A stretch of DNA of 64,000 nt, from assembly GCA_965287045.1 (NCBI GenBank), contig OZ336882.1:64666001-64730000 (forward strand), read 5' to 3'. This document shows, piece after piece, positions 7,396-59,997 of this stretch. Position 1 is the stretch's first letter. Every line of letters begins with the position of its first letter. The DNA comes from Carcharhinus amblyrhynchos. Taxonomy: Eukaryota. The notes beneath the pieces were generated by a model that had not been told where the DNA came from, ran no database searches, and saw nothing but the letters and a program-made list of their open reading frames with translations. The translations under genes and the position numbers were made by a program.

Positions 7396-8135
7396 CAAAA
7401 GTGAGGAACAATGCAGAATTGTTGTTACAACATCCCCATTGACTAATTATTCACCATGTTCCCATCATAAGCTTCAGTTCATACCACAGGGAATTATATA
7501 AATGCAAATACACTGATTCAGTTGGCAGCATCTTAACTGTGAGCCAAGAACTTGAGAGTTCAAGAACCAAAATTCAACCGAATAATCTAGGCTGACACTG
7601 AGGAGGGCAGCAGTTCCACTGGTTCCAGCTTTCAGAAGAGAGAGATCAAGTTGACTTCTGATTGTTCAGGTAGATAATGGAGAGGACCACAATGATAAGG
7701 CTGGCTTTTCCTCCTCACAGGACATCAGTAAGAACAGATTAATTGATCATTAATCTCATTGCAGTTTGGGGGAACATGCTGTGCCTATACAGCAGTGGCA
7801 AGATTTCAAAGTCGTTTATATTTGTGACGTGCTTGGAGGTGTTTCTGAGAGATATAACGAGGTTCCACAGAAAGACAAACCTCGCTTTATTTCCTATGTT
7901 TCTAGTCAAGACATTTTTTTGCTTTGATGGGATGTGGAGGTTGCTGACAAGGTTGGCATTTAATGTCCATCCCAAATTGCCCTTGAATTGAGTGACTCGT
8001 GAGGCCATTTCAAAGGTCAGCTAAGAGTCAACCACATTGCTGTGGCTCTGGAGTCACATGTAGGCCAGAGTATTTAAGGACGGCAGATTTAATATCCCTA
8101 AAGTACACTGGTGAACCAGATGGGTTTTTATGACA

Positions 8136-8234
8136 CTGGCTTTGACAAAGGTTCATCTGAACTCAAAACATCAGTTCTTTTCTCTCCTTACAAATGCTGC
8201 CAGTCCTGCTGAGATTATCCAACATTTTCCCTTT
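8136..8234 (+). mobile_element. Penelope-like terminus, family B, decayed hammerhead, 15-bp TSD
   Basis: ttgacaa-aggttcatctgaactc-aaaa-catc is a decayed CTGANGA/stem II/GAAA; flanked by tgggtttttAtgaca (8121-8135) and tgggtttttGtgaca (8235-8249). Confidence 0.7.
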
Positions 8235-8267
8235 TGGGTTTTTGTGACAATTCATAGTTTTGTGGTT

Positions 8268-9248
8268 ACCATTTATATAGATGATCTGAAGGAGGGAACA
8301 GGGTGTATGGTGTCGAAATTTGCTGATGACACTAAGATTGGTGGAACGGCAAATTGCGCGGAGGGTGTGGAGAGTCTACAGAAGGATCTGGATAGGCTGG
8401 GCGAATGGGCCAGGAACTGGCAAATGGAATTTAATGTTGCAAGTGCAAGGTGGTCCACTTTGGCAGGAATAATGGTAGGAAGGATTATTACTTACGTGGC
8501 AAAAAACTGCAGCAGGCGACGGTGCAGAGGGACCTCGGGGTCCTTGTGCATGAGTCGCAAAAACCCAGCCTGCAGGTGCAGCAGGTGGTCAGGAAGGCAA
8601 ATGGGATGCTGGCCTTCATAGTGAGGGGGATTGAATGTAAAAGTAGGGAGGTCTTGCTGCAGCTGTATAGGGCATTGGTGAGGCCGCAGCTGGAGTACTG
8701 TGTGCAGTTTTGGGCGCCGTACTTACGCAAGGATATTTTGGCCTTGGAGGGAGTGCAGAGGAAGTTTACTAGGCTGATGCCGGAGTTGAAGGGGTTGAGC
8801 TATGAGGAGAGGCTGAATAAACTAGGCTTGTACTCGTTAGAGTTTAGAAGAATGAGGGGAGATCTCATTGAGACATATAAGATGATGAATGGGATGGATA
8901 GGATAGAGGTGGAGAGACTCTTCCCGCTCAGAAAGGACAGTAGGACGAGGGGGCACAGCCTCAAGATAAAGGGGGGGCGGTTTAGAACAGAGTTGAGGAG
9001 GAACTTCTTCACTCAAAGGGTGGTGAATCTCTGGAATTCTCTGCCCGTTGAAGTGGTGGAGGCTGCCTCGCTAAATATTTTTAAGATGCGGGTTGATGGG
9101 TTTTTGATAAGAGAGGGGATTAAGGGTTATGGGGAGAGGGCGGGAATGTGGAACTGAGCCACGACAGATCAGCCATGATCTTATTGAATGGCGGGGCAGG
9201 CTCGAAGGGCTAGATGGCCTACTCCTGCTCCTATTTCTTATGTTCTTA
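8268..9248 (+). mobile_element. Young 5'-truncated CR1 LINE (RT C-terminus, one frameshift)
   Basis: IYIDDL...KFADDTKIGG, then ORF 8450-9157 (RPQLEYCVQFWAP...FFTQRVVNLWNSLP); tail ctcctatttcttatgttctta; CpG-rich. Confidence 0.95.
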
Positions 9249-41405: not shown

Positions 41406-43600
41406 GTGGTAGAATGGGTTAATTCTAACTGTTCAATATGCTAATCATAGACCATGTATATCCCCACAGGAAGTGATACAATGTCACAGAATGTTCTCTC
41501 TCTTGTATTGCCGTGTGTGGGGTATAACCAGGGCAGTAAGCTGGATTCCAATAAAGTATGTGTTTTATTTACTCCTGCAGATTCACATATATATTCTGTA
41601 TTAACTGAACAATGCTAAGAATATTATATGGGGTGGCAGCAAGTGAAAGAACAGTCCTGGAGAAGTCTTTCCAAATCCAGAAAGCTTCGAAAAAGTCACA
41701 GGTCCCAACCAAGCAGAGGTATAGCTGAAATATTGGAGATCAGTTCAATATCAAACCATGTCAGGCCTTGCTACGAATATGAGAAGTGAGCGGGTCAGTA
41801 TGCTGTGTACTGTGAGGGTGATATCCTTGTCAGACAAGACCAGCCCCTCCCAACATGACTGATCTTCAAAGAACCACGGGTATGGTAAACCAAGTTGGAA
41901 AGTTCCTGCCCAACCTTGATGTCATCAATAAGCCACTAGGTCAGCTGTTACAAGATAATACGTGTTGTTGAGTGGAAGCATAACAAAGTTCCTATGAAAA
42001 TCAAAGAGGTGATGATATCACCTGACAGTTAGCTCACTATGGCCCAGAGATATCCAGTATCATTGCTGCCAATGCACCTTCTACAGGATTGGTAGCTGTA
42101 TGCTTTCAAATACAGATAGATGGAAAGCCCAGACCAGTTTACAATGCATCCTATTCACTGAACAGATCCTGAACAGAGATCTGCAGTGACAAAGAAAGAA
42201 GCTACAACATCGACTTGTGAAAAGTTTGCAAATTATGTTTGTGATCCTCACTTCAAGATAGAGACTGCCCAGGAATCTTTAGTGATGCTCCTAAAATCTA
42301 AGGAGTTAGCAACAATGCTTCCATAAGGACAACAATTCAGACTGAAAATGATGAGGTCTGATGCAAAGATAGGGTATGTTCTGGGAAATCAACAAACCAC
42401 AGCAGGTACTTTATTCTAGTGTCAAGACTGGAACAAGGAGATGTAATTCTTTTCAAAGAGGTAGAACCTTTTGCAACAAAAACAACCATAACTCTACCAG
42501 AAACAATTCAATGACTGAATGAGACCAGGGATGCACAGAACTCTGATGAAGAATGTGCTTGAGTCAGAGAACACTGCACCCAAGGATGGCCAGCATACAT
42601 GCCACACAATTGCAGTCTCTGGTAATACTACCAATAGGGAGGACACCTCTGTGTAGTTGACAATTTACCCACTTACGATTACAGAGTGTATACCGAGAGT
42701 TATGAGACTCAACATACTGCAGCGATTGCAGCAAGAGCATTTGAGCATCAGAGAATGACGAGCCAGAGCAAAATATTCTGTTTGGTGATGCAATCTCTCT
42801 AAATCATTGGAATTGATAATATCAAGCTGGAGTACTTGTGTTATTCATCAGCAGAAGACAAGAGAATCGTTGATGCCATCTTCCTTTCCATCAAGACCAT
42901 GGGAACATTTGGGGATGGACATCTTTGAACACAGAGCTAAAATATTCCTGATCATAGTAGATATTATTCAGATAGATAGAAGTCAACAACTGCAGGGTTA
43001 CATTTCTGAAGCAGCGATTACATTGCTGAAGAAGATATTTGCAACCCATCAAATCCCAGACCTTGCAATCTTAGACACTGGAACGCCATATGCTAATTAA
43101 CTCTTTAAAGAGTTCACAGTATCATATAGATTTGTTCATACTATCAGTTCACCAAGGTACCCTCATGCCAACAGTGAAGTTGGAAGTAAAGTAGATATAA
43201 TGAAAGCATCACTGAAGAACAACATCAGCATCCAACCTGCACATCTCAACCATTGTTCACTTTCACTCCAAAATGGAGAGCACCATGTGAACTCTTCATA
43301 GGAAGAAGATTAAGCACTCAATTCCTTTGGGCAAACTGAGAGACAAAGAGGACAAATTTGTCCCAGCCAGATGTAGAACATTGACAAGCATAACAGAACA
43401 TGCAACTTGCCAGACTACCAAACAAGAGAGGTCGTTTGGATCCAAGACCAACTCAGCTGTGGACAAGTGGTTGATCAGATAGCAAGATCACAGACCTACC
43501 TCATCCAAACACAGCATTGTTCAGTGAAGCTGAGCTATGGTTGCTATACAGAATGGCCTTCTATCCTGTTGAAGAGCAATCATCTACACCATCAAAACCA
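41406..43600 (+). mobile_element. Decayed Ty3/Gypsy LTR retrotransposon (probable 5' LTR ~41406-41628, then RT/RNase H/integrase remnants)
   Basis: tg...aataaa...then PBS-like ggtggcagc; GMVNQVGKFLPNL, EQRSAVTKKEA, CEKFANYV, PSRPWEHLGMDIF, IFATHQIPD, SSPRYPHANSEV; many stops; no 3' LTR seen. Confidence 0.85.
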
Positions 43601-43704
43601 GCCAGAAATGCTGCATTCACAAGTGCTAGTATCTAAAATGTTTATGACTCTTCTTGGTAATATTAAATACTTCTTCTTTCAATCTGATATCCTTAATATT
43701 CTGA

Positions 43705-44257
43705 TATCATTGAGAAAGGATATATTGGCCTTGGAGGGAGTACAGAGAAGGTTCACCAGGTTGATACCGGAGATGAGGGGGTTAGCTTATGAGGAGAGAG
43801 CGAGTAGATTGGGCCTGTACTCATTGGAGTTTAGAAGGCTGAGGGGGGATCTTATAAAGACATATAAGATACTGAAGGGGATAGATAGGGTAGAGGCAGA
43901 GAGATTCTTTCCACTTAGAAAGGAAACCAGAACTAGAGGGCACAGCCTCAAAATAATGGGGGGAGGGGTGGGGGGGGTGCAGTTTAGATCAGAGTTCAGG
44001 AGGAACTTCTTCTCTCAGAGGGTAGTGAACCTCTGGAATTCTCTGCCCATTGAAGTGGTGGAGGCCACCTCGTTGAATATGTTTAAGTCACGGGTAGATA
44101 GATTTCTGATCGATAAGGGAATTAAGGGTTATGGGGAGCAGGCAGATAAGTGGAACTGATCCACTTTAGATCAGCCATGATCTTATTGAATGGTGGGGCA
44201 GGCTTGAGGGGCTAGATGACCTACTCCTGTTCCTATTTCTTATGTTCTTATGTTCTT
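43705..44257 (+). mobile_element. Young CR1 3' end
   Basis: LRKDILALEGVQRRFTRLIP...FFSQRVVNLWNSLP; tail (ttcttatg)n; same subfamily as 8268. Confidence 0.95.
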
Positions 44258-48820: not shown

Positions 48821-50228
48821 TTCACAAGCATACCAATGTGAAGGGAAAACAACAATTTATACCATATGAGAAGACAATGCTGATTGTCGAAAAGTAGACT
48901 CTGACTTTCACATGCAATGCATTCGCACCTTACAGTATCGGAGGGCCATAAGAACAACCTAGACATAAAGCTGACAAAGGGATATAGTCACCCTTACCAA
49001 GCCTGACAGTATCAACAAAATGCACTTCAATCTTAATGTTCGGTCCAAATTCATATCAATTGGACCTTCAGCTCACAATGACTGGATAGCCTTGCTCAAA
49101 AATAAATTTAAAAATTGTTTGGTGCACTTGTGTAAGAGTGATAAGTTGCCATGAAACATTTATGACAGGCTTCACCCTCATAGCTTGTTGTGTCTGCCTG
49201 AGACACGCAAATCCGATGGCCCTTTATGCCCTACCCTATCTATGACTGCTGCATATATCATGAACTGGCCACATGGTCGGGGTACAATGGTTTGCTATAT
49301 TTAATGTGCATGTCGGAATTCCCTTACCTGTCTTAATGGGCTCCATCCTGTGCTCAAATTCACCTTTGAAATGGAGCAGCCAAAATGAGCTTCCTTTCCT
49401 TGACACCTAGTTAGGAAATCTGTCATGGGTTCTCTACTATTGTCCACAGCAAGCTTATCTTCACTGGTCAATATACAGGTTGGGATTCCTATAGTTGCAC
49501 ATGCTGGATTGGCCTTATTGGCAACCCCTCATTAATAGGGCCTGAGGCCTGAAGCTTGATGCTGAAATAGGGGACATCAAAGCCATCCTGTGGGACAATG
49601 GCTACTCTGATCAGATTGCTGGATCTCACACAAACTTATGAACAGGCCTACGGCTGCCACTTATTTGCCCAGTCGACCTCAGAATACCCTGAAAAGGTAA
49701 GGTATATCAAAAATTTGGGCAACAGGTGAAACTAGCTGTTTCACACTGATACTTTGCAGTAGCAACACGAGTGGTATTCACCACTAACAAGATGCTGCTG
49801 TCAAGTCAAAAAAAATTCCACCTATCGCACAAATTAGTAATGTACTGTTTGAATTTCAGTGCCAGTGTAATGCATGGTTTGTCGGCTGTATGTCCCAAAG
49901 ACTATCAAGTAGCATGTCCCTTCCACTGTGAGCATAAGGTAAGGTACAAACCGTAACCAACCAGCCCTTGCTTGCAAAACTCAAACTTTAGATGTGATTC
50001 CTCGATTGGACAACATTTGCTAAATAATCCCCAGTGTGTTAAGAATTACGCTAGCAACCAATGTAAGATTGTCGGTCAAACTCGCAGCGTGATGTTGGAA
50101 GTGGCATCTATGAATACACGGGACCCTGTTCTTTGCGGACAGGAAGAACATGTGCACACATTGTTCCTGTTTCAACTAAACAAAATAAGCAACTACCATT
50201 CGCTGCTTCATTCTTCTTGTCCAATCAG

Positions 50229-50430
50229 GATGTGGAGATGCCAGCATTGGACTGGAGTGGGCATCAGGTTAAAATCTAATAGGTTTATTTGGAATCACGA
50301 GCTTTCAGAGGACTGCTCCTTCCTCAGGTGAGGAAGGAGGAAGGACTTACCTGAGGAAGAAGCAGCGCTTTGAAAGCTCATGTTTCCAAATAAACCTGTT
50401 AAATTTTAACTGGTGCGGTGAGACTTCTTA
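50229..50430. mobile_element. Short head-to-head pair of family A-like PLE termini with ~13-bp TSD
   Basis: cttgtccaatcag (50216-50228)/cttgaccaatcag (50431-50443); hammerhead motifs at 50295-50331 (-) and 50347-50383 (+). Confidence 0.8.
50295..50331 (-). ncRNA. Minimal hammerhead motif
   Basis: UCAC-CUGAGGA-A-GGAG(CAGUC)CUCU-GAAA-GC-UC-GUGA; core intact, CUC cleavage triplet. Confidence 0.6.
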
Positions 50431-52049
50431 CTTGACCAATCAGAGTCAAGCTCTGTTTCAAATTTCAAAAAGCAGTCAACTGTCAGTCACCTGGTGGATT
50501 CTCCATAGCAACACCTATCAACATCCTGATTGGACAAGAGGAATGAAGCAGCGAATGGTAGTTGCTTATTTTGTTTAGTTGAAACAGGAACAATGTGTGC
50601 ACATGTTCTTCCTGTCCGCAAAGAACAGGGTCCCGTGTATTCATAGATGCCACTTCCAACATCACGCTGCGAGTTTGACCGACAATCTTACGTTGGTTGT
50701 TAGCGTAATTCTTAACACACTGGGGATTATTTAGCAAATGTTGTCCAATCGAGGAATCACATCTAAAGTTTGAGTTTTGCAAGCAAGGGCTGGTTGGTTA
50801 CGGTTTGTACTTTACCTTATGCTCACAGCGGAAGGGACATGTTACTTGATAGTCTTTGGGACATACAGCTGACAAACCATGCATTACACTGGCACTGAAA
50901 TTCAAACAGTACATTACTAATTTGTGCGATAGGTGCAATTTTTTTTGACTTGACAGCAGCATCTTGTTAGTGGTGAATACCACTCGTGTTGCTACTGCAA
51001 AGTATCAGTGTGAAACAGCTAGTTTCACCTGTTGCCCAAATTTTTGATATACCTTACCTTTTCAGGGTATTCTGAGGTCGACTGGGCAATTTATGGAACG
51101 AGAAGTGGCAGTTAGCGTCCACTTGCCAAACCATCAGTTCTCCCTTCTTATACTGTATAGATTGTTTTTCTCCCCCTCATACTGGTATTCTTGCAAAGTG
51201 TCCTGATGAATGCAAGATAAAAAGCTTTGGCGTGTCTCTTTCTTCAGCAATACTAAATTCTGTACTCCCAAACGATTACTTATTTTATCCCTATAAATGA
51301 AGTGATTATTAAACTTTAAAAACCTAGAGTACCTTCCAGCAACTAACATGTGGAAAGGCTAAATGTGACACTAAGTTGTATTGTTTTTGGCACAGAGCTT
51401 TAAGCCTCCAGTTATACATGGGCCAAAGTGACATTGATGTGCTCTGCCTTGGTGCCTGAGCAAAATGGCGTTCACGTCTGGTGTTTCTTAAAGGTACAGA
51501 CCAGCACCTTCCAATCTTTCTGAATCGATGCAGATTAACCCATTTTGGACTTGTGCCTGGTTTGACTCATCCCCAGTTTTACCAATTCTTGGGTTGGCCA
51601 CTAGATGGAGTACCATCTTAAAAGGGCATTTTCCTCTTTCAGCCCTAAGGCAAAACATTGCCAATGATGGAAATGGGAAATAAAATCAAAAATAGGAATG
51701 CTGGAAAGACTCAGCAGGTCAGGCAGCCTCTGTGGAGAAAGAAACAGAGTTAACAATCGGGTAGATGGCCAAGGCATCAGAACTGAAGGAAAGTAGAATT
51801 ACTAAACAAGGAGAATTGGGGTGGGTGAGGATGTTGGTGGTGGGGGGAAGGGGAGGGGTGGGAACAGGAAGAACAAAAATGAATCTCTGTGATAGGGTGG
51901 AGGGCAGGTAAGATTAAGAACAAAGAACAAAGAACAACCCAGCACGGGAAACAGGCCCTTCGGCCCAACAAGCCCGCGCCGCCATCTTAACAAAATATTT
52001 CATTATCCAACAGCCAAAGAGAGTGGTAATGGGTATAGAAAAGAAACAA

Positions 52050-52565
52050 TCATACAATCCCTACAGTGTAGAAGAAGGCCATTTGGCCCATCAATCCTGC
52101 ACTGATAACAATCCCATCTAGACCCTATCCCTGTAACTGCATATATTTACCCCACCAATCCCTCTAATCTACACATCCCAGGACACTAAGGGGAGATTTA
52201 GCATGGCCTATGAACCGAACCCACGTATCTTTGGACTTTGGGAGGAAACCGGAGTACCCGGAGGAAACCCATGCAGACACGACGGAACATGCAAACTCCG
52301 CACACACAGTGAACCAAGCCAGGAATCAAACGCAGGTGCCTGGAGCTGTAAGTCAGCACTGCTAACCACAGTGTCACCGTGCCACTGACATTGTAGGGAA
52401 TCATAGAATCCCGACAGTGCAGAAGGAGGCCGTTCAACCCATCGAGTCTGCAAAAGCAACAATCCCGCCCAGGCTCTATCCCCGTAACTCCACAAATTTA
52501 CCCTCCTGATCCACCTGACTCTAAGGGTCAATTTAGCATGGCCAATCAACCTAACTTGCACATCC
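52050..52565 (-). mobile_element. Two HE1 SINEs (52050-52385 full, 52398-52565 partial)
   Basis: Head, V-domain and tails in reverse complement. Confidence 0.88.
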
Positions 52566-52882
52566 CCAGATTGTGTTGTGATAGTGCATCCATCAGAATG
52601 CAATACGAAGGGTTAAAGTAAAATACAAATTAGCAAAAACAACTCAAAAAATACACAGGACAAGATGGAGACAAAGGTTATGTTCTAAAGTTCTTCAACT
52701 CAATATTGAGTCTAGAAGGCTGTAGCGTACCAAGACACAAGATGAGGTGCTGTTCCTCAAGCTTACATGGTGCTTCACTGGAACACTGTAGCTGGCCAAG
52801 GACAGAGAGATCAGAGTGGAAACCTGGTGGAAAATTAAAATGACAAGTGGCAGGAAACTCAGGCTGATGTTGCAGATGACCA

Positions 52883-53085
52883 GAAGCATAGAAAATAGGA
52901 GCAGGGGGTGGAGCCTGCTCCACCATTCAATATGACCATGGCTGAACCTCTATCTCAATACCATATCCCCATGCGCTCCCCATGCTCCTGGATGTCTTTA
53001 GAATCTGGAAATCTATCTATTTCCTTCTTAAACATATTCAGTAACTTGGCCTCCACAGCCTTCTATGGTGAAGAATTCCATAGGA
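52883..53085 (-). mobile_element. CR1 3' end
   Basis: WNSSP*KAVEAKLLNMFKKEIDRFPDSKDIQE, then the CR1 tail. Confidence 0.8.
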
Positions 53086-53088
53086 TCA

Positions 53089-54622
53089 TCACAAAAGGCT
53101 GTGCTGATACAGTTGTCAATGCAAAAAGCAGCAACGATACAGTTGTCAATGTAGTACCGATACAGTCATCAATGCAAAAGTGCTGCTGATACAGTCACCA
53201 ATGAAACATGGATACAGTCGTCAGTGAAACACCAAAACGGTCCTCAATGCAAAAAGTAACAATGATACAGTCATCAATGCAAAAAAGCAGTGACGCTACA
53301 ATTGTCAATGCAAGAAGCTGCACAGATACGGTCATCAATGCAAAAAGCTGCATGGATACAGTCGTCAATGCAAAAAGCAGTGTGGATAAAGTCATCAATG
53401 CAAAATGCAGGGATGATACAGTCATCAATGCGAGGAACAGCACCGATAGAGTCTTCAATGCAAAACACAGTGACAATGCAGTCATCAATGCAAAAAGCAA
53501 GGACGATACAGTCATCAATGCAAAATGTAGTGATGATACAGTCAGCAATGCAAAACGCAGTATTGATACACTCATCAATGCAATACGCAGTGATGATACA
53601 GTCATCAACGCAAAATACGGGGAAGATACAGTTGTCAAAGCAAAAAACAACACTGATACAGTTGTCAATGCAAAACACAGTGACGATACAATTATCAATG
53701 CAAAACACAGCACTGATACAGTCATCAATGCAAAACGCAGCACTGATCCAGTCACCAATGCAAAATGCAGGGATGATACAGTCATCAGTGCAAAAAGCAG
53801 GGATGATACAGTCATCAGTGCAAAACACAGTGACGATACAGTCATCAATGCAAAACGCAGTGATGACACAGTCATCAATGCAAAACGCAGTGATGATACA
53901 GTCATCAATGCAAGAAGCAGCACTGATACGATCATCAATGCAAAACACAGGGGTGATACAGTCATCAATGCAAAACACGCGGATGATACAGTTGTCAAAG
54001 CAAAAAACAGCACCAATACTGTCGTCAATGCAAAATGCAGTGATGATACAGTCATCAATGCAAAACACAGTGACGATACAGTCATTAACGCAAAACGCAG
54101 CACTGATACAGTCACCAATGCAAATCACAGCACTGATACAGTCATCAATGCAAAATGCAGTGACGACACAGTCATCGATGCAAAATGTAGGGATGATACA
54201 GTCATCAATTCAAAACACAGTGACAATACAGTCATCAATGCAAAACGCAGTGACGATACAATCATCAATACAAAAAGCAGCACTGATACAATCATCAATG
54301 CAAAATGTAGGGATGATACAGTCATCAATGCAAAACGTAGTGACGATACAATCTATGCAAAACGCAGCACTGATACAGTCGTGGATACAAAACACAGTGA
54401 CAACACAGTCATCAATGCAAAACGCAGTGATGATACAGTCATCAATGCAATAAGCAGCACTGATACAATCATTAATGCAAATCGCGGGGATGATACAGCC
54501 ATCAATGTAAAACACGGGGATGTTACAGTTGTCAAAGCAAAAAACAGCTTCAATACAGTCGTCAATGCAGCAGTGAAACAGTTGTCAGTGCAAAAAACAG
54601 TGCCAGTGCAGTCATCAATGAA
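53089..54622 (-). repeat. 30-bp minisatellite, ~50 units, derived from the Penelope RT catalytic motif
   Basis: Unit (-) attgatgactgtatcagtgctgcgttttgc = IDDCISAAFC; the first unit is the RT's own FIDDCTGTVFC at 54622-54590. Confidence 0.92.
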
Positions 54623-55064
54623 TCAAAAAAAAATGAGGAAGAGAGCCCAGATACGATTGAAATAGTGAATGTTTCACGTAAGCCACAAAAAAAGTATGCA
54701 TAACTAGGAGCCAATAGCAATAGCTTTTATTTGGAGGAAGTGAGTGGAGTTAAAGAAGTTGTTCAGAGTGAGAATAGGTTGAGTCAGTTAGAGGAGGATG
54801 GGAATGGTGAATGGGACAGGTTCAACAATCCAAGAGGCAGAGAGCTCTGAGCCTATCCTGATGTGGGTGGAGGTGCAGAGAGATGGAATGTCCGTAGTGA
54901 TGAGGAAATGGTTAGGGTCTGGGAAACTGGAACTGCTGAATTGACATAGGGCATCGGAGGAAGCGTTTGTAGTTTAAAGTTTATTTATTAGTGTCACGAG
55001 AAGGCTGACATTCAAAAGGAGAGAAAAGAAAGGAGTCAAGTTCGGAAGGGCAGCCTTGGTGTAG

Positions 55065-55448
55065 TAGAATGGCCCTCGGAAATAGAAAAGCCAAAGCCTA
55101 GTTGCAAAACTCAACAGGCTTTACCACCACTAGTGAATTTACATCCATGAGAATGGCCAGACTAACCATGAGAGAGGCTACATATAGATTTTCCTGGGCC
55201 ATTTATGGGTAATATGTTTCTCACACAAGTGGATACAAACTCCAAGTGGTTAGATGTGCAATCGATGAAGTCCACAACAGCTAGAGCCACTATTGACAAG
55301 TTAAAGAAGATATTTGCTAGGAATTCCAGAGGCAGTTGTTTTGACAATGGCACATCATCCACAGTGGAAAAATTCCAAAGTTTCTCAAGCCCAATGGCAT
55401 TCGTCATGTGAAGTTCAGCACCTTACCAGCCAGAATCAAATGGGCAAA
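55065..55448 (+). mobile_element. Ty3/Gypsy integrase fragment
   Basis: RLHIDFPGPFMGNMFLTQVDTNSKWLDV...KIFA/GIPEAVV/DNG...SAPYQPESNG. Confidence 0.88.
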
Positions 55449-55450
55449 TC

Positions 55451-55584
55451 TGACTCTCTGGCAGTGCAGCACTCCCTCAGTACTGACCCCCTGACAGTGC
55501 AGCACTCCCTCAGTACTGACCCTCTGGCAGTGCAGCACTCCCTCAGTACTGACCCTCTGGCAGTGCAGCACTCCCTCAGTACTG
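55451..55584. repeat. 33-bp tandem repeat x4, SINE-derived
   Basis: Unit tgaccctctggcagtgcagcactccctcagtac; the core matches the SINE body near 48220. Confidence 0.9.
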
Positions 55585-55637
55585 TAGTACTTACACTGAA
55601 GCGTTCGTCTAGATTAGATAACCAATGATCTTTGGAT

Positions 55638-55760
55638 GAATAGAATCATATTTTTTATGGCTCAGCAGGAGGCCATTTGGCCCATTATGTCTCCCTAAAA
55701 AAAATCATGATTTAGTGCCATTCGTCTGCATTTTCCCCATACCCCTGCACATTTTCTATA
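55638..55760 (-). mobile_element. CR1 3' tail
   Basis: Matches the tail at 16665-16795 (ggaggccatttgg...tttagtgccatt). Confidence 0.7.
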
Positions 55761-55772
55761 TTGTTACTTTTT

Positions 55773-55955
55773 GCGAGGATTCTGACTTAGATACGTTCAG
55801 TCATAATCCCACAGATGGTATTTTCGCGCCATTAGCTCTTCAACCAAGCACATACACCAAATGTCTGAACCTGCGGTTCTTCTCGTACTGAGCAGGATTA
55901 CTATTGCAACGCCACTTTGTAATCATCAGTAGGGTAAAGCTAACCTGTCTCACAA
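55773..55955 (-). pseudogene. 28S rRNA 3'-domain fragment (pseudogene)
   Basis: Reverse complement reads gtgagacaggttag.tttaccctactgatga...gtaatcctgctcagtacgagaagaaccgcaggttcagacatttggtgtatgtgcttgg...ccatctgtgggattatgactgaacg; includes the sarcin-ricin loop agtacgaga.gaac. Confidence 0.92.
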
Positions 55956-56534
55956 TACTATGATAACACTACCTACCGACCCATAGACCTCAGAATGATC
56001 TTGCCAGAGTAAAGAAAGGTTTAAAATCAGTCAAATCTTTCAGTTTAACCACTGTTAATCAACTATCTATCAACTATCTATATTTCTAATCTCTCACATT
56101 CTCGTCTACTTTGATGATGCTGAATATGACTTCTGTCTTCATAAGTATTTTAGATTTTCTTTAATTAAAGATGTGAAGCAATTATTGTGATACCAACTCA
56201 ACTAATTTCTTCCCAACTTGAATGAGAAAGGAAAGGTCAGGATGCACACCAATAATGGTAAATCAATCGAGGTGATTGAATTTAGATTTTATCATCTGGG
56301 TGCACAAGGATATTGGAGGTCATGGAAGCCCGGAGAGATGTTTCTTTAGAGCAGTATTTAAAGTAGAATGTAGAGAGATAATCAGAAGAGAAATGCAAAG
56401 GCCAGGGTAACACAACTAATGAACGTGATTGTTTGGTAGTGAAGTAGTTTGGGTATCCCACCAGCTATTGGAAGTAAAAAGCAAACCATGTTCATCAGCC
56501 CCTCAAAACAGTCATCTTCATCAAATTTTATAAA

Positions 56535-57235
56535 AATGCATTCATGGGATGTGTCCAGGCCAGCATTCATTGTCTATCCCTAATCGCCCTTGAGAAGATG
56601 GTGGTGAGCCAATTTTTTGAATTGCTACAGACTATCTGGTTTCGGTAACCCACAGTGCTGTTAGAAAGGAAGTTACCCAGTGACAATGATAGAAGGGCAG
56701 ATGTATTCCAAGTCAAGATGGTACACAATTGGAGGGGAACTTGGTGGTGCCTCCATTATTCTGTTGCCCTTGTGCTTCTAGTTGATAGAAGTCATGGCAG
56801 GAACTCTACCCCCTCATCCGCCATGGAATTGGCAAGTGCGGGTGTCCGACAACAAAAATTTCTGTTGACTTGTGGCAGGAATTTCCAGCCTTGCCTGAGG
56901 AAGGCCATAAAATTCTGTCCCATGTGTTTAGAAGATTCTGTCAAAGGAGCTTTGGCAAGTGATTGCAATGCATCTTACAGATGATGCAAAACACTGCCAC
57001 TGTGCCTCGGTGGTGCAGACAGAGAATGTTTAATGTGGAAAATAGATAGTCAATTAAGCAGGATGACCTATTTTGGATGGTGTTGAGCTTTTTGAATGTC
57101 ATTAGAGCTGCATTCATCCAGGCAAGTAAAGAGCATTCCATCACACTCCTGACTTGTGTCTTGTAGATGGTGGACAGGCTTTGAGGAGGCAGGAGGCAAG
57201 TTATTCATTGCAGAATTCCCAGCCTCTGACTTGCC
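56535..57235 (-). mobile_element. 3' end of a second CR1/L2-group LINE lineage, with a nested MITE (~56797-56921)
   Basis: MECSLLAWMNAA...KKLNTIQ...LHHRGTVA...KMHC; tail shared with the 11922-type SINE. Confidence 0.8.
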
Positions 57236-57274
57236 TAAAATAATTGAACTAAGATGTCTTCCAGTCCCAACAAA

Positions 57275-57600
57275 TCTAGATATTTGAATTCTCATCCTCA
57301 TGTTCAGACACTTCCATGGCCACATCCTTCCTGATATCCCTAACCTCTTACTGCCCTCCAACAACTCCAAGTTCCTCCAATCCTGGTATCTTCTATATCT
57401 CCTCTCCACTTCACCCACACTTATTGGTGGTGGACCTTTAGCTGTTAAGGCCCTAAACTCTGAAATTCATTAGCGCCTCTCCGTCCTCTTTTAAGATGCT
57501 CCTGTCGCTGAACTTTTGGTCACTTGTCTATCAATATCTGATGGAGTTCACTGAAGTGTCTTGTACCGACCAGAGGCATTGTAAGTGCAAGCTGGTTTTG
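57275..57600 (+). mobile_element. L2-like LINE 3' fragment
   Basis: Similar to 9450-9725; ends ggcattgtaagtgcaag. Confidence 0.55.
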
Positions 57601-57744
57601 TTATAACGGGCCAAGGAGTACATTGAACATTTGTCCATTATCACCTACACCGTTTGTTCAACTTATAATAAATGTATTATTTATGTTCATCTTTCTTTTC
57701 TTCAGCAGTCCATGTATATCTGAAATTTAAATGTTTAACATTGC

Positions 57745-58300
57745 TTTCTGATTTGATTTGATTTGATTTGTTATTGTCACATCTATTGGTATACAATGAA
57801 AAGTATTGTTTCTTGACACTAAGGTAGGGCCAGTCAAAAGTCTACTGGCAGCAGGGAAGAAGCTATTCTTGAGTTGGTTAGTACATGATCTCCGACTTTT
57901 ATAACATTTTCCCAATGGAAGAAGTGGAGGAGAGTATGTCAGGGTATGTGGGGGTCCTTGATTATGCTGGTTGCTCCACTGAGGTAGTGGGAAGTATAGA
58001 CAGAGTTAATGAATGGGAGGCTGGTTTGTGTGTGGACTGAGCTTCGGTCATGACCCTTCGTAGTTTCTTGCAGTCTTGGTCAGAGCAGGAGCCATACCAA
58101 GTTGTGATATATCAGGAAAGCGAGCATTCTATGGTACATCTGTAAAAGTTGGTGAGAGTCATAGTGGACATGCCAAATTTCCTTAGCTTTCTGAAAAAGT
58201 AGAAGAATTGGTGGGTTTTCTTAACTATAGTGTCTGGACAACTAGAAACATGAAGCTCTTGACTATTTCGTCATATTGATGTAAACTGGGGCATGTCATT
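57745..58300 (-). mobile_element. Rex1/Babar-like LINE 3' fragment
   Basis: TNFYRCTIECSLS..IT.WYGSCS; GKCYKSRRSCTNQLKNSFFPAASRLL; (aaatc)n tail. Confidence 0.8.
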
Positions 58301-58691
58301 TTCTATGATTCACTTTGACCTATTCTGTATGGTGTCCTTCCTCAGCCCTTCATCTAGGTTTCTCTAGTGATTCTCTGATATTCAGTTTGTTCCTTCAGTC
58401 AATGTTGTTGGCAAGACTTTTATTGGACTCAATGGTAGAGACCCTTTGGTATCATCAAATAGGGGCTTCAGCACTTTAGGAAGTGAGGCTTACCTTTCCC
58501 TCAGCAGTTTTCTTTCCCTATCCTGGACATTATGATTCATATTGAGTGACAGCTACCGAGGGATCAGTACTTCTGTTACCTAATGTGCCTGATGCTAAAA
58601 AGATGAGGAAAAGAGGGTTGTGTTTTTATAATGACATTAGGGCACCAATCACTCATAAGGGATTGTGCAAGCAGGCTGAGGGCTTGTTTAT

Positions 58692-59997
58692 TAAGAAAAG
58701 GCACATTGATCAGGAATAGTCAGCATGGTTTTGTCAAGGGCAGGTCGTGCCTTACGAGCCTGATTGAGTTCTTCGAAAATGTGACTCAACACATTGACGA
58801 AGGAAGTGCAGTGGACGTGGTGTACATGGACTTCAGCAAGGCGTTTGATAAGGTCCTCCATGCAAGACTTCTTGAGAAGGTGAGAGGGCATGGGATCCAA
58901 GGGCCTTTGGCCTTGTGGATCCAGAACTGGCTTGCCTGCAGAAGGCAGAGAGTGGTTGTGGATGGGTCTTTTTCTGAATGGAGGTCAGTCACCAGTGGAG
59001 TGCCCCAGGGATCTGTTCTAGGACCCTTGCTGTTTGTCATTTTCATAAATGACCTAGATGAGGAAGTGGAGGGATGGGTAAGTAAGTTCGCTGATGTCAC
59101 GAAGGTCGGTGGTGTTGTGGATGGTCTGGAAGGATGTCAAAAGTTGCAGCAGGACATAAATAGGATGCAGGACTGGGCGGAGAAGTGGCAGATGGACTTC
59201 AACACGGATAAATGTGTAGTCGTCCATTTTGGCAGAACCAATGGGATGAACGAGTACACTATCGAGGGCAGGAGTCTTAGTAGTGTTGAAGAGCAGAAGG
59301 ATCTTGGGGTCTGGGTCCACAGGACTCTTAAATCGGCCTCGCAGGTGGAGGATGTGGTCAAGAAGGCGTATGGTGTACTGGCCTTCATTAATCGAGGGAT
59401 TGAGTTTAGGAATCGGGAGGTAATGCTGCAACTTTATAAGACCCTTGTCAGGCCTCATTTGGAGTACTGTGCGCAGTTCTGGTCACCTCACTATAGGAAG
59501 GACGTAGAAGCTATTGAAAGGGTACAGAGGAGATTTACAAGGATGTTGCCTGGACTGGGAGGCATGCCTTATGAAGTTAGGTTGAGGGAGCTGGGACTCT
59601 CTTCCCTGGAGAGACGAAGGTTGAGAGGCGACCTGATAGAAGTTTATAAAATGTTGAGTGGAATAGATAGGGTGGATTCTCAGAGGCTATTTCCCCGGGT
59701 TGAAATGGTCGCTAAGAGAAGACACAGATTGAAGGTGCGGGGAGGCAAGTACAGAAGTGATGTTAGGGGTAAGTTTTTCACTCAGAGGCTGGTGAGTGAA
59801 TGGAATCGGCTGCCGTCAGTGGTGGTGGAGGCGAACTCACTGGGGTCTTTTAAAAGACTTCTGGATGAGTATATGGAATTTAATGGGATTGGGGGTTATA
59901 GATACGTCTATTGATTGGTAGGTGTTGATGTGATCGGCGCAACTCATGGGCCGAAGGGCCTGTTTGTGCTGTAGTGTTCTATGTTCTATGTTCTATG
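58692..59997 (+). mobile_element. Young 5'-truncated CR1 with an uninterrupted ~400-aa RT fragment
   Basis: SQHGFVKGRSCLT...SGVPQGSVLGPLLF...KFADVTK (catalytic DD changed to DV)...FFTQRLVSEWNRLP; tail (ttctatg)3. Confidence 0.96.

Follow-up and report, generated by a model that had tools for sequence, protein, structure and literature searches.

A single-locus minisatellite whose 30-bp unit matches the reverse-transcriptase catalytic motif of its host Penelope-like element

Jurka and Gentles reportedly described Alu-derived minisatellites in 2006. According to the available text of a survey of the human genome, 7,276 minisatellites derive from transposable elements (TEs) and may come from any region of the element; 6% of the cases are explained by the mechanism postulated there, and the Alu-derived ones average ∼2.3 units, as given in a figure legend (Ahmed and Liang 2012, PMC3389668). 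Several satellites are related to open reading frames (ORFs) of retrotransposons, among them chicken HinfI (CR1 ORF2), PROsat and Pvc20 (both L1 ORF2), and a rye satellite (gag), all of which are named in the accessible part of a satellite review in which the word Penelope has 0 occurrences (PMC9659126). The birth of a minisatellite is placed between flanking direct repeats of 5–10 bp in the model of Haber and Louis, as set out in the available portion of the source (PMC6947457). A search of titles and abstracts, which covered mostly literature outside subscription, returned no minisatellite made of a reverse-transcriptase (RT) catalytic motif or of an ORF from a Penelope-like element (PLE). 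Here we describe an array of which the unit matches such a motif and which lies inside a PLE copy.

The array is located in a window of 64,000 nucleotides (the whole stretch of DNA that was analysed) and is composed of ∼52 head-to-tail units of 30 bp each (Table 1). TRF reports a period of 30 with 44.4 copies over 53240-54569 (76% matches, score 1156), and splitting by hand at an anchor yields 46 units in register plus 6 that are shortened to 23–29 bp, in agreement with the ∼50 copies estimated in the initial annotation. The span proposed there (53089..54720) holds for the array proper, 53091-54619, but its remainder, 54620-54720, is RT flank. With this period and copy number, the array falls within the definition of a minisatellite (head-to-tail units of 10–100 bp, up to ∼100 copies). 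The first unit keeps the register of the [Y]IDD motif, opening with its Ile codon at 54619 immediately after a Tyr codon that is mutated, and the array runs down from there to 53091. Each unit corresponds to the codons IDDCxxxxxC, and the translations that had been read from the sequence (IDDCTGTVFC, IDDCISAAFC, IDDCIVTVFC, IDDRISAASC, and IDDSIGAVFC) are all found among the units. Excluding units of 23, 27, and 29 bp, the mean pairwise difference is 7.1 of 30 positions (24%) and the mean difference from the nearest unit is 2.5 of 30 (8%); two pairs are identical. A block of six units recurs 17 units away (P = 0.013) and an eight-unit block gives P = 0.03, and tests on blocks of three to five units are not significant (P = 0.07–0.45). 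The block structure is weak, and several unit types are present.

Table 1. Coordinates of the array and of the sequences around it in the window.
Feature	Positions	Strand	Basis
Minisatellite, ∼52 × 30 bp, from codons IDDCxxxxxC	53091..54619	-	TRF, unit splitting, profile, folding
Decayed PLE RT fragment, ∼360 bp upstream of the IDD motif, with frameshifts and stops	54620..54966	-	blastn, tblastn
CR1-type LINE 3′ end, presumed family, 5′-truncated, at the break and abutting the last array unit	52911..53092	-	Identity and tblastx
PLE resumed: C-terminal end of the GIY-YIG endonuclease and following sequence	52621..52876	-	blastn, tblastn, alignment
Tail of an unrelated repeat of very high abundance, bordering the PLE remnant at the 5′ side	54965..55019		Contig pile-up, matches elsewhere

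The flanks of the array match copies of one PLE family on both sides, which bears out the Penelope-type assignment made from the sequence alone. By blastn, the RT fragment is 66–76% identical to family copies over positions −360 to +13, counted from the Tyr codon, and the fragment beyond the array corresponds to about +827 to +1060; by tblastn, the former matches a natural 556-aa ORF (E 2e-6), and the two pieces map to residues 94-181 and 508-547 of the ORF of the natural copy L044. The PLE sequence is thus collinear on the two sides of the array, with ∼800 bp of the element missing between the array and the GIY-YIG end, and the missing stretch was not found within the window or 10 kb to either side. 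The initial annotation had ordered the downstream features as a CR1 end followed by the C-terminal part of the GIY-YIG domain, and this order is confirmed (53092-52911, then 52876-52621). The upstream RT string that it had read exists, but requires three frame changes and crosses a stop. The LINE 3′ end, which we take to be of the CR1 family, shows 61–72% identity and tblastx matches to the 3′ ends of CR1-type ORFs in other parts of the window. CR1-type RT 3′ fragments with open frames of 240–435 codons are located at 8115-9157, 43377-44159, and 58607-59914, all on the plus strand. At the other border of the PLE remnant, thousands of contigs stack on the tail of the abundant repeat in all four runs compared. 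Farther along the window are a decayed fragment with stops and a presumably Gypsy-like integrase core (55090-55450, plus strand), multi-copy in all four runs compared; a 33-bp tandem repeat at 55450-55584 (TRF, 4.1 copies, 95% matches); and a dispersed rRNA piece, a fragment of the 3′ end of the large-subunit rRNA that scores 104.7 bits, above the gathering score (55550-55914, minus strand).

The 471 bp upstream of the array have matches at 39 other places among the best 40 of 498 candidates, and a protein query derived from one PLE copy gave at least 150 matches among the best of 6,969 candidates. The copy L044 has a 557-codon open frame, of which the product matches RVT_1 below the curated cut-off (E 2e-4) and has 133 homologues at E ≤ 0.001, many of them from sharks, rays, and invertebrates; some of these have precomputed GIY-YIG domains, and homologues carry PF00078 and PF01541. 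A Pfam search with a 92-aa RT piece gave no match, and a search by sequence found no solved structure. Judging from L044 and its homologues, the family has a single ORF encoding an RT (DKG, YxDD) plus, at the C terminus, a GIY-YIG endonuclease, the two separated by a CX2-5CxxC zinc-finger-like linker that is deleted from the window copy. No hammerhead ribozyme was detected at E ≤ 0.1 at positions 50000-58000 of the window, where the copy is a fragment. By these domain features, the host is assigned to the EN+ PLEs of Neptune/Nematis type as characterized in the available text of PMC8557442, from which it differs in that the window copy is a fragment and the clade is set by features rather than by an RT tree. 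PLE copies in the genome are of two types after the catalytic aspartates, YIDDYF and YIDDCI (L005, L017, and L044 against L062-L073), and the YIDDCI type agrees with homologues in other sharks, rays, and invertebrates. Three database proteins (P0002, P0020, and P0064) that match the PLE ORF at 55–58% identity carry the names of host genes, respectively a divergent kinase, a protein with a chitinase domain, and a nicotinamide riboside kinase isoform, and represent either mis-annotations or exonised PLE copies.

The relationship between the unit and the parental element was examined with a profile of 40 YIDDY-type copies (46 anchored copies less 3 duplicates and 3 with core indels), which were chosen without regard to the second half of the unit except through the protein query. 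Most fetched copies read YIDDYFGAASC, and a pattern retrieved 12 of the YIDDCI type. A comparison of the unit with the family sequence after YIDD had been suggested in the initial annotation, and the mismatch that would have refuted its reading does not occur: the units match the profile best at the Ile codon, with a mean of 11.1 bits against −17.2 at the next offset; for 300 shuffled units, the mean at the best offset is −15.9 bits and the maximum 7.6. Nucleotides 16–30 alone score 1.4 compared with −22.8 when shuffled, and the match therefore extends past IDD. Against the nearest of the 12 pattern-selected YIDDC-type copies, the mean identity of the units is 23.1 of 30. The best flank identity among copies is ∼73–76% and no close young parent was found, so we infer the original boundary letters of the window copy. 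The register, the profile match, and the presence of PLE sequence on both sides support the origin in place from IDDCxxxxxC that had been envisaged, and the array was almost certainly amplified from these codons of its host copy.

The trigger first suggested for this event, a microhomology between cattga at the start of the unit and cactga 30 nt later, does not hold. The two strings reflect unit 1 and unit 2 of the array, and the microhomology is absent from 52 of 52 parental PLE copies; cactga lies in the second unit (23 bp), which aligns to the units with a score of 6.5 and to the parental downstream sequence with −3.7. In all 52 parental copies, the longest exact match spaced by 30 nt at the boundary is 1–3 nt, which does not exceed the background in the rest of the element. 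The codon following the final Cys is mostly TCT in the family, and only a T-x-C match crosses the 30-nt boundary. Direct repeats of 5–10 bp flanking the seed occur in none of the 52, the pre-duplication state of the window copy itself not being visible.

A second candidate trigger is suggested by the codons around IDDCI, which form a quasi-palindrome. The mean predicted folding energy of 45 array units is −2.9 kcal/mol compared with −1.5 kcal/mol for dinucleotide shuffles, and 36 of the 45 are predicted to fold more strongly than their own shuffles; for a stretch of nine units, the predicted z values are −5.1 for one strand and −6.1 for the other, and four other arrays show no predicted folding excess. 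When windows are ranked by predicted strength, the hairpin site falls into the top fifth in 7 of 12 YIDDC-type copies, for which the selecting pattern itself dictates part of the stem, and in 5 of 40 YIDDY-type copies. For the first array unit, the predicted energy is just −1.4 kcal/mol. The most frequent of the derived unit types has a perfected stem, which fits either a hairpin-templated change or a simple triplet slip. The predicted hairpins are weak and may be regarded as a candidate trigger; a hairpin step would be the weakest in the birth of the array, and we give it somewhat less than an even chance.

The minisatellite very probably arose from the IDDCxxxxxC codons of its host PLE, at this locus only, through one local tandem duplication, possibly aided by a hairpin, followed by growth through unequal exchange or gene conversion. 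A PLE would have inserted and then decayed. A 30-nt segment would next have been duplicated with only the T-x-C match at its boundary and no direct repeat of 5–10 bp, possibly with the help of the hairpin, and single units and blocks would have been recopied by unequal exchange or conversion, giving rise to several unit types. CR1 may then have inserted at the 3′ edge, with the loss of ∼800 bp at that time or later, and turnover of the array would have been slow thereafter.

Other origins of the array can be weighed against amplification in place. Were it an unrelated minisatellite that had inserted beside the RT motif and resembled it by chance, a boundary at the tenth codon without a parental direct repeat would be accounted for, but the exact register, the match of each half of the unit to the PLE family profile, and the failure to find a source array elsewhere in the genome leave this reading with a negligible probability. 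Four genome-wide searches yielded no second array: an exact two-unit pattern (6 of 6 matches inside the array), a single-unit pattern (1 of 1 inside it), the array DNA as query (one candidate region only), and a period-30 pattern for both PLE subfamilies (29 matches, of which 13 fall within the array and 16 belong to an unrelated repeat that is not tandem). These searches relied on exact patterns or best candidates, which diverged arrays could escape. They also cover a check proposed in the initial annotation, and found no further array of the unit, with or without PLE flanks. As these searches found no second locus, the satellite appears not to be carried by the element, contrary to what had been conjectured. 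That the PLE family carries the 30-mer as a satellite seed, or that its YIDDC codons act as a hot spot at which arrays arise repeatedly across copies, is thus quite improbable; TRF found no array at the motif in 77 other loci (∼55 of them distinct anchored PLE copies), some of which were chosen by homology on both sides and are biased against arrays. On the side of a hot spot are the hairpin-prone YIDDC-type copies mentioned above and a second single-locus minisatellite, with a 15-bp unit, in another PLE copy (L017, G000:C12:40842315-40845552). Its ∼29 + 6 units (∼506-1033 and 158-244) are interrupted by a different repeat, and beyond them no PLE sequence follows within the 9.6 kb fetched. However, this array starts 358 bp past the motif of its own element, and although its units match the YIDDC codons at up to 12–13 of 15 letters, 15% of shuffles reach the same level, which is not significant. 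Derivation of the 15-bp array from its local PLE sequence found no support. A broader proposal, in which the IDDCI[G/S/N] quasi-palindrome of YIDDC-type PLEs is a recurrent minisatellite seed, the 30-bp and 15-bp arrays are two independent births, and the stem-perfecting units record hairpin-templated mutation, appears improbable.

The enzymology of the element offers another route, since PLE RTs have a common ancestor with telomerase RT, as stated in the available text of PMC8557442. The telomerase-related RT could have written the array at insertion by copying a 30-nt stretch of RNA reiteratively and then jumping toward the 3′ end, which would fit the coincidence of the array with the loss of ∼800 bp of the element. 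The several unit types and repeated blocks point instead to stepwise genomic recopying, the CR1 end at the break is a simpler cause of the loss, and no other examined PLE copy shows such an array; writing by the RT is therefore highly improbable. Recruitment of the array as a coding repeat or expressed element might be suspected from the four frames over both strands that are open for 309–486 codons, and from the single net 3-bp deletion in the 42-unit core. However, for three of these frames, and for the motif frame, the openness simply follows from a unit that lacks a stop there; the IDD frame of the array does contain a stop. The synonymous fractions in the six frames (0.19–0.40) are near expectation (0.21–0.32), no frame has the synonymous excess expected of purifying selection, and the kinds of variants are evenly spread over codon positions (17/19/18). 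Protein searches, restricted to near lengths, gave no match for the IDD frame and four weak partial matches for the longest plus frame. A coding role is scarcely plausible on these grounds; most likely, the array has no function and it is incidental that its seed is a catalytic motif.

Part of the region is contained in 19 runs, of which 4 were compared over 54500-55440, an interval that includes the first four units of the array. Over 54500-54996, a contig from run X3 is identical to the window and one from organism B has 17 mismatches and 5 gaps; a contig from organism C spans 54500-54660 with 5 mismatches, and for organism A only the flank of the array appears in the matches listed. The junction and the first four units, which are the part of the array seen outside the source genome, where contigs of relatives did not span it, are thus common to two other labelled organisms at ∼3% divergence. 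Set against the 24% difference between units, this value suggests that the age of the array is probably great. The splits that the ∼3% divergence marks came after the junction and at least four units had formed, and much of the variation among units probably goes back to before those splits.

The locus provides a clean record of the birth of a minisatellite, for which many sister copies reveal the seed, its register, and the parental sequence. It is common to several related organisms and permits testing of how minisatellites with long units start, in a case that lacks the flanking direct repeat of the textbooks and has a predicted hairpin as the candidate. It gives no sign of a novel function or of a novel mobile system. 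With the model of Haber and Louis, as given in the available portion of the source, it shares a first duplication with subsequent slippage, conversion, or unequal exchange, and differs from it in the parental copies, 52 of 52 of which are without a flanking direct repeat (PMC6947457). The retrotransposon-ORF satellites covered in the accessible part of the review likewise are tandem repeats that share sequence with the coding region of a retroelement, but those are satellite families, whereas the present array has a 30-bp unit, occupies a single locus, and lies in register inside its parent copy (PMC9659126). The closest likeness in kind is to the TE-derived minisatellites of the human genome, in which, by the available text, part of an element that has inserted is duplicated in situ and then expands; here, the unit is homologous to the element at a collinear position and the host element is present on both flanks, the differences being the length of the array, ∼52 units, and its seed, a PLE segment that codes for the RT catalytic motif (PMC3389668). 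The array is an ordinary instance of a well-known kind of event, the seeding of a tandem repeat by a mobile element.
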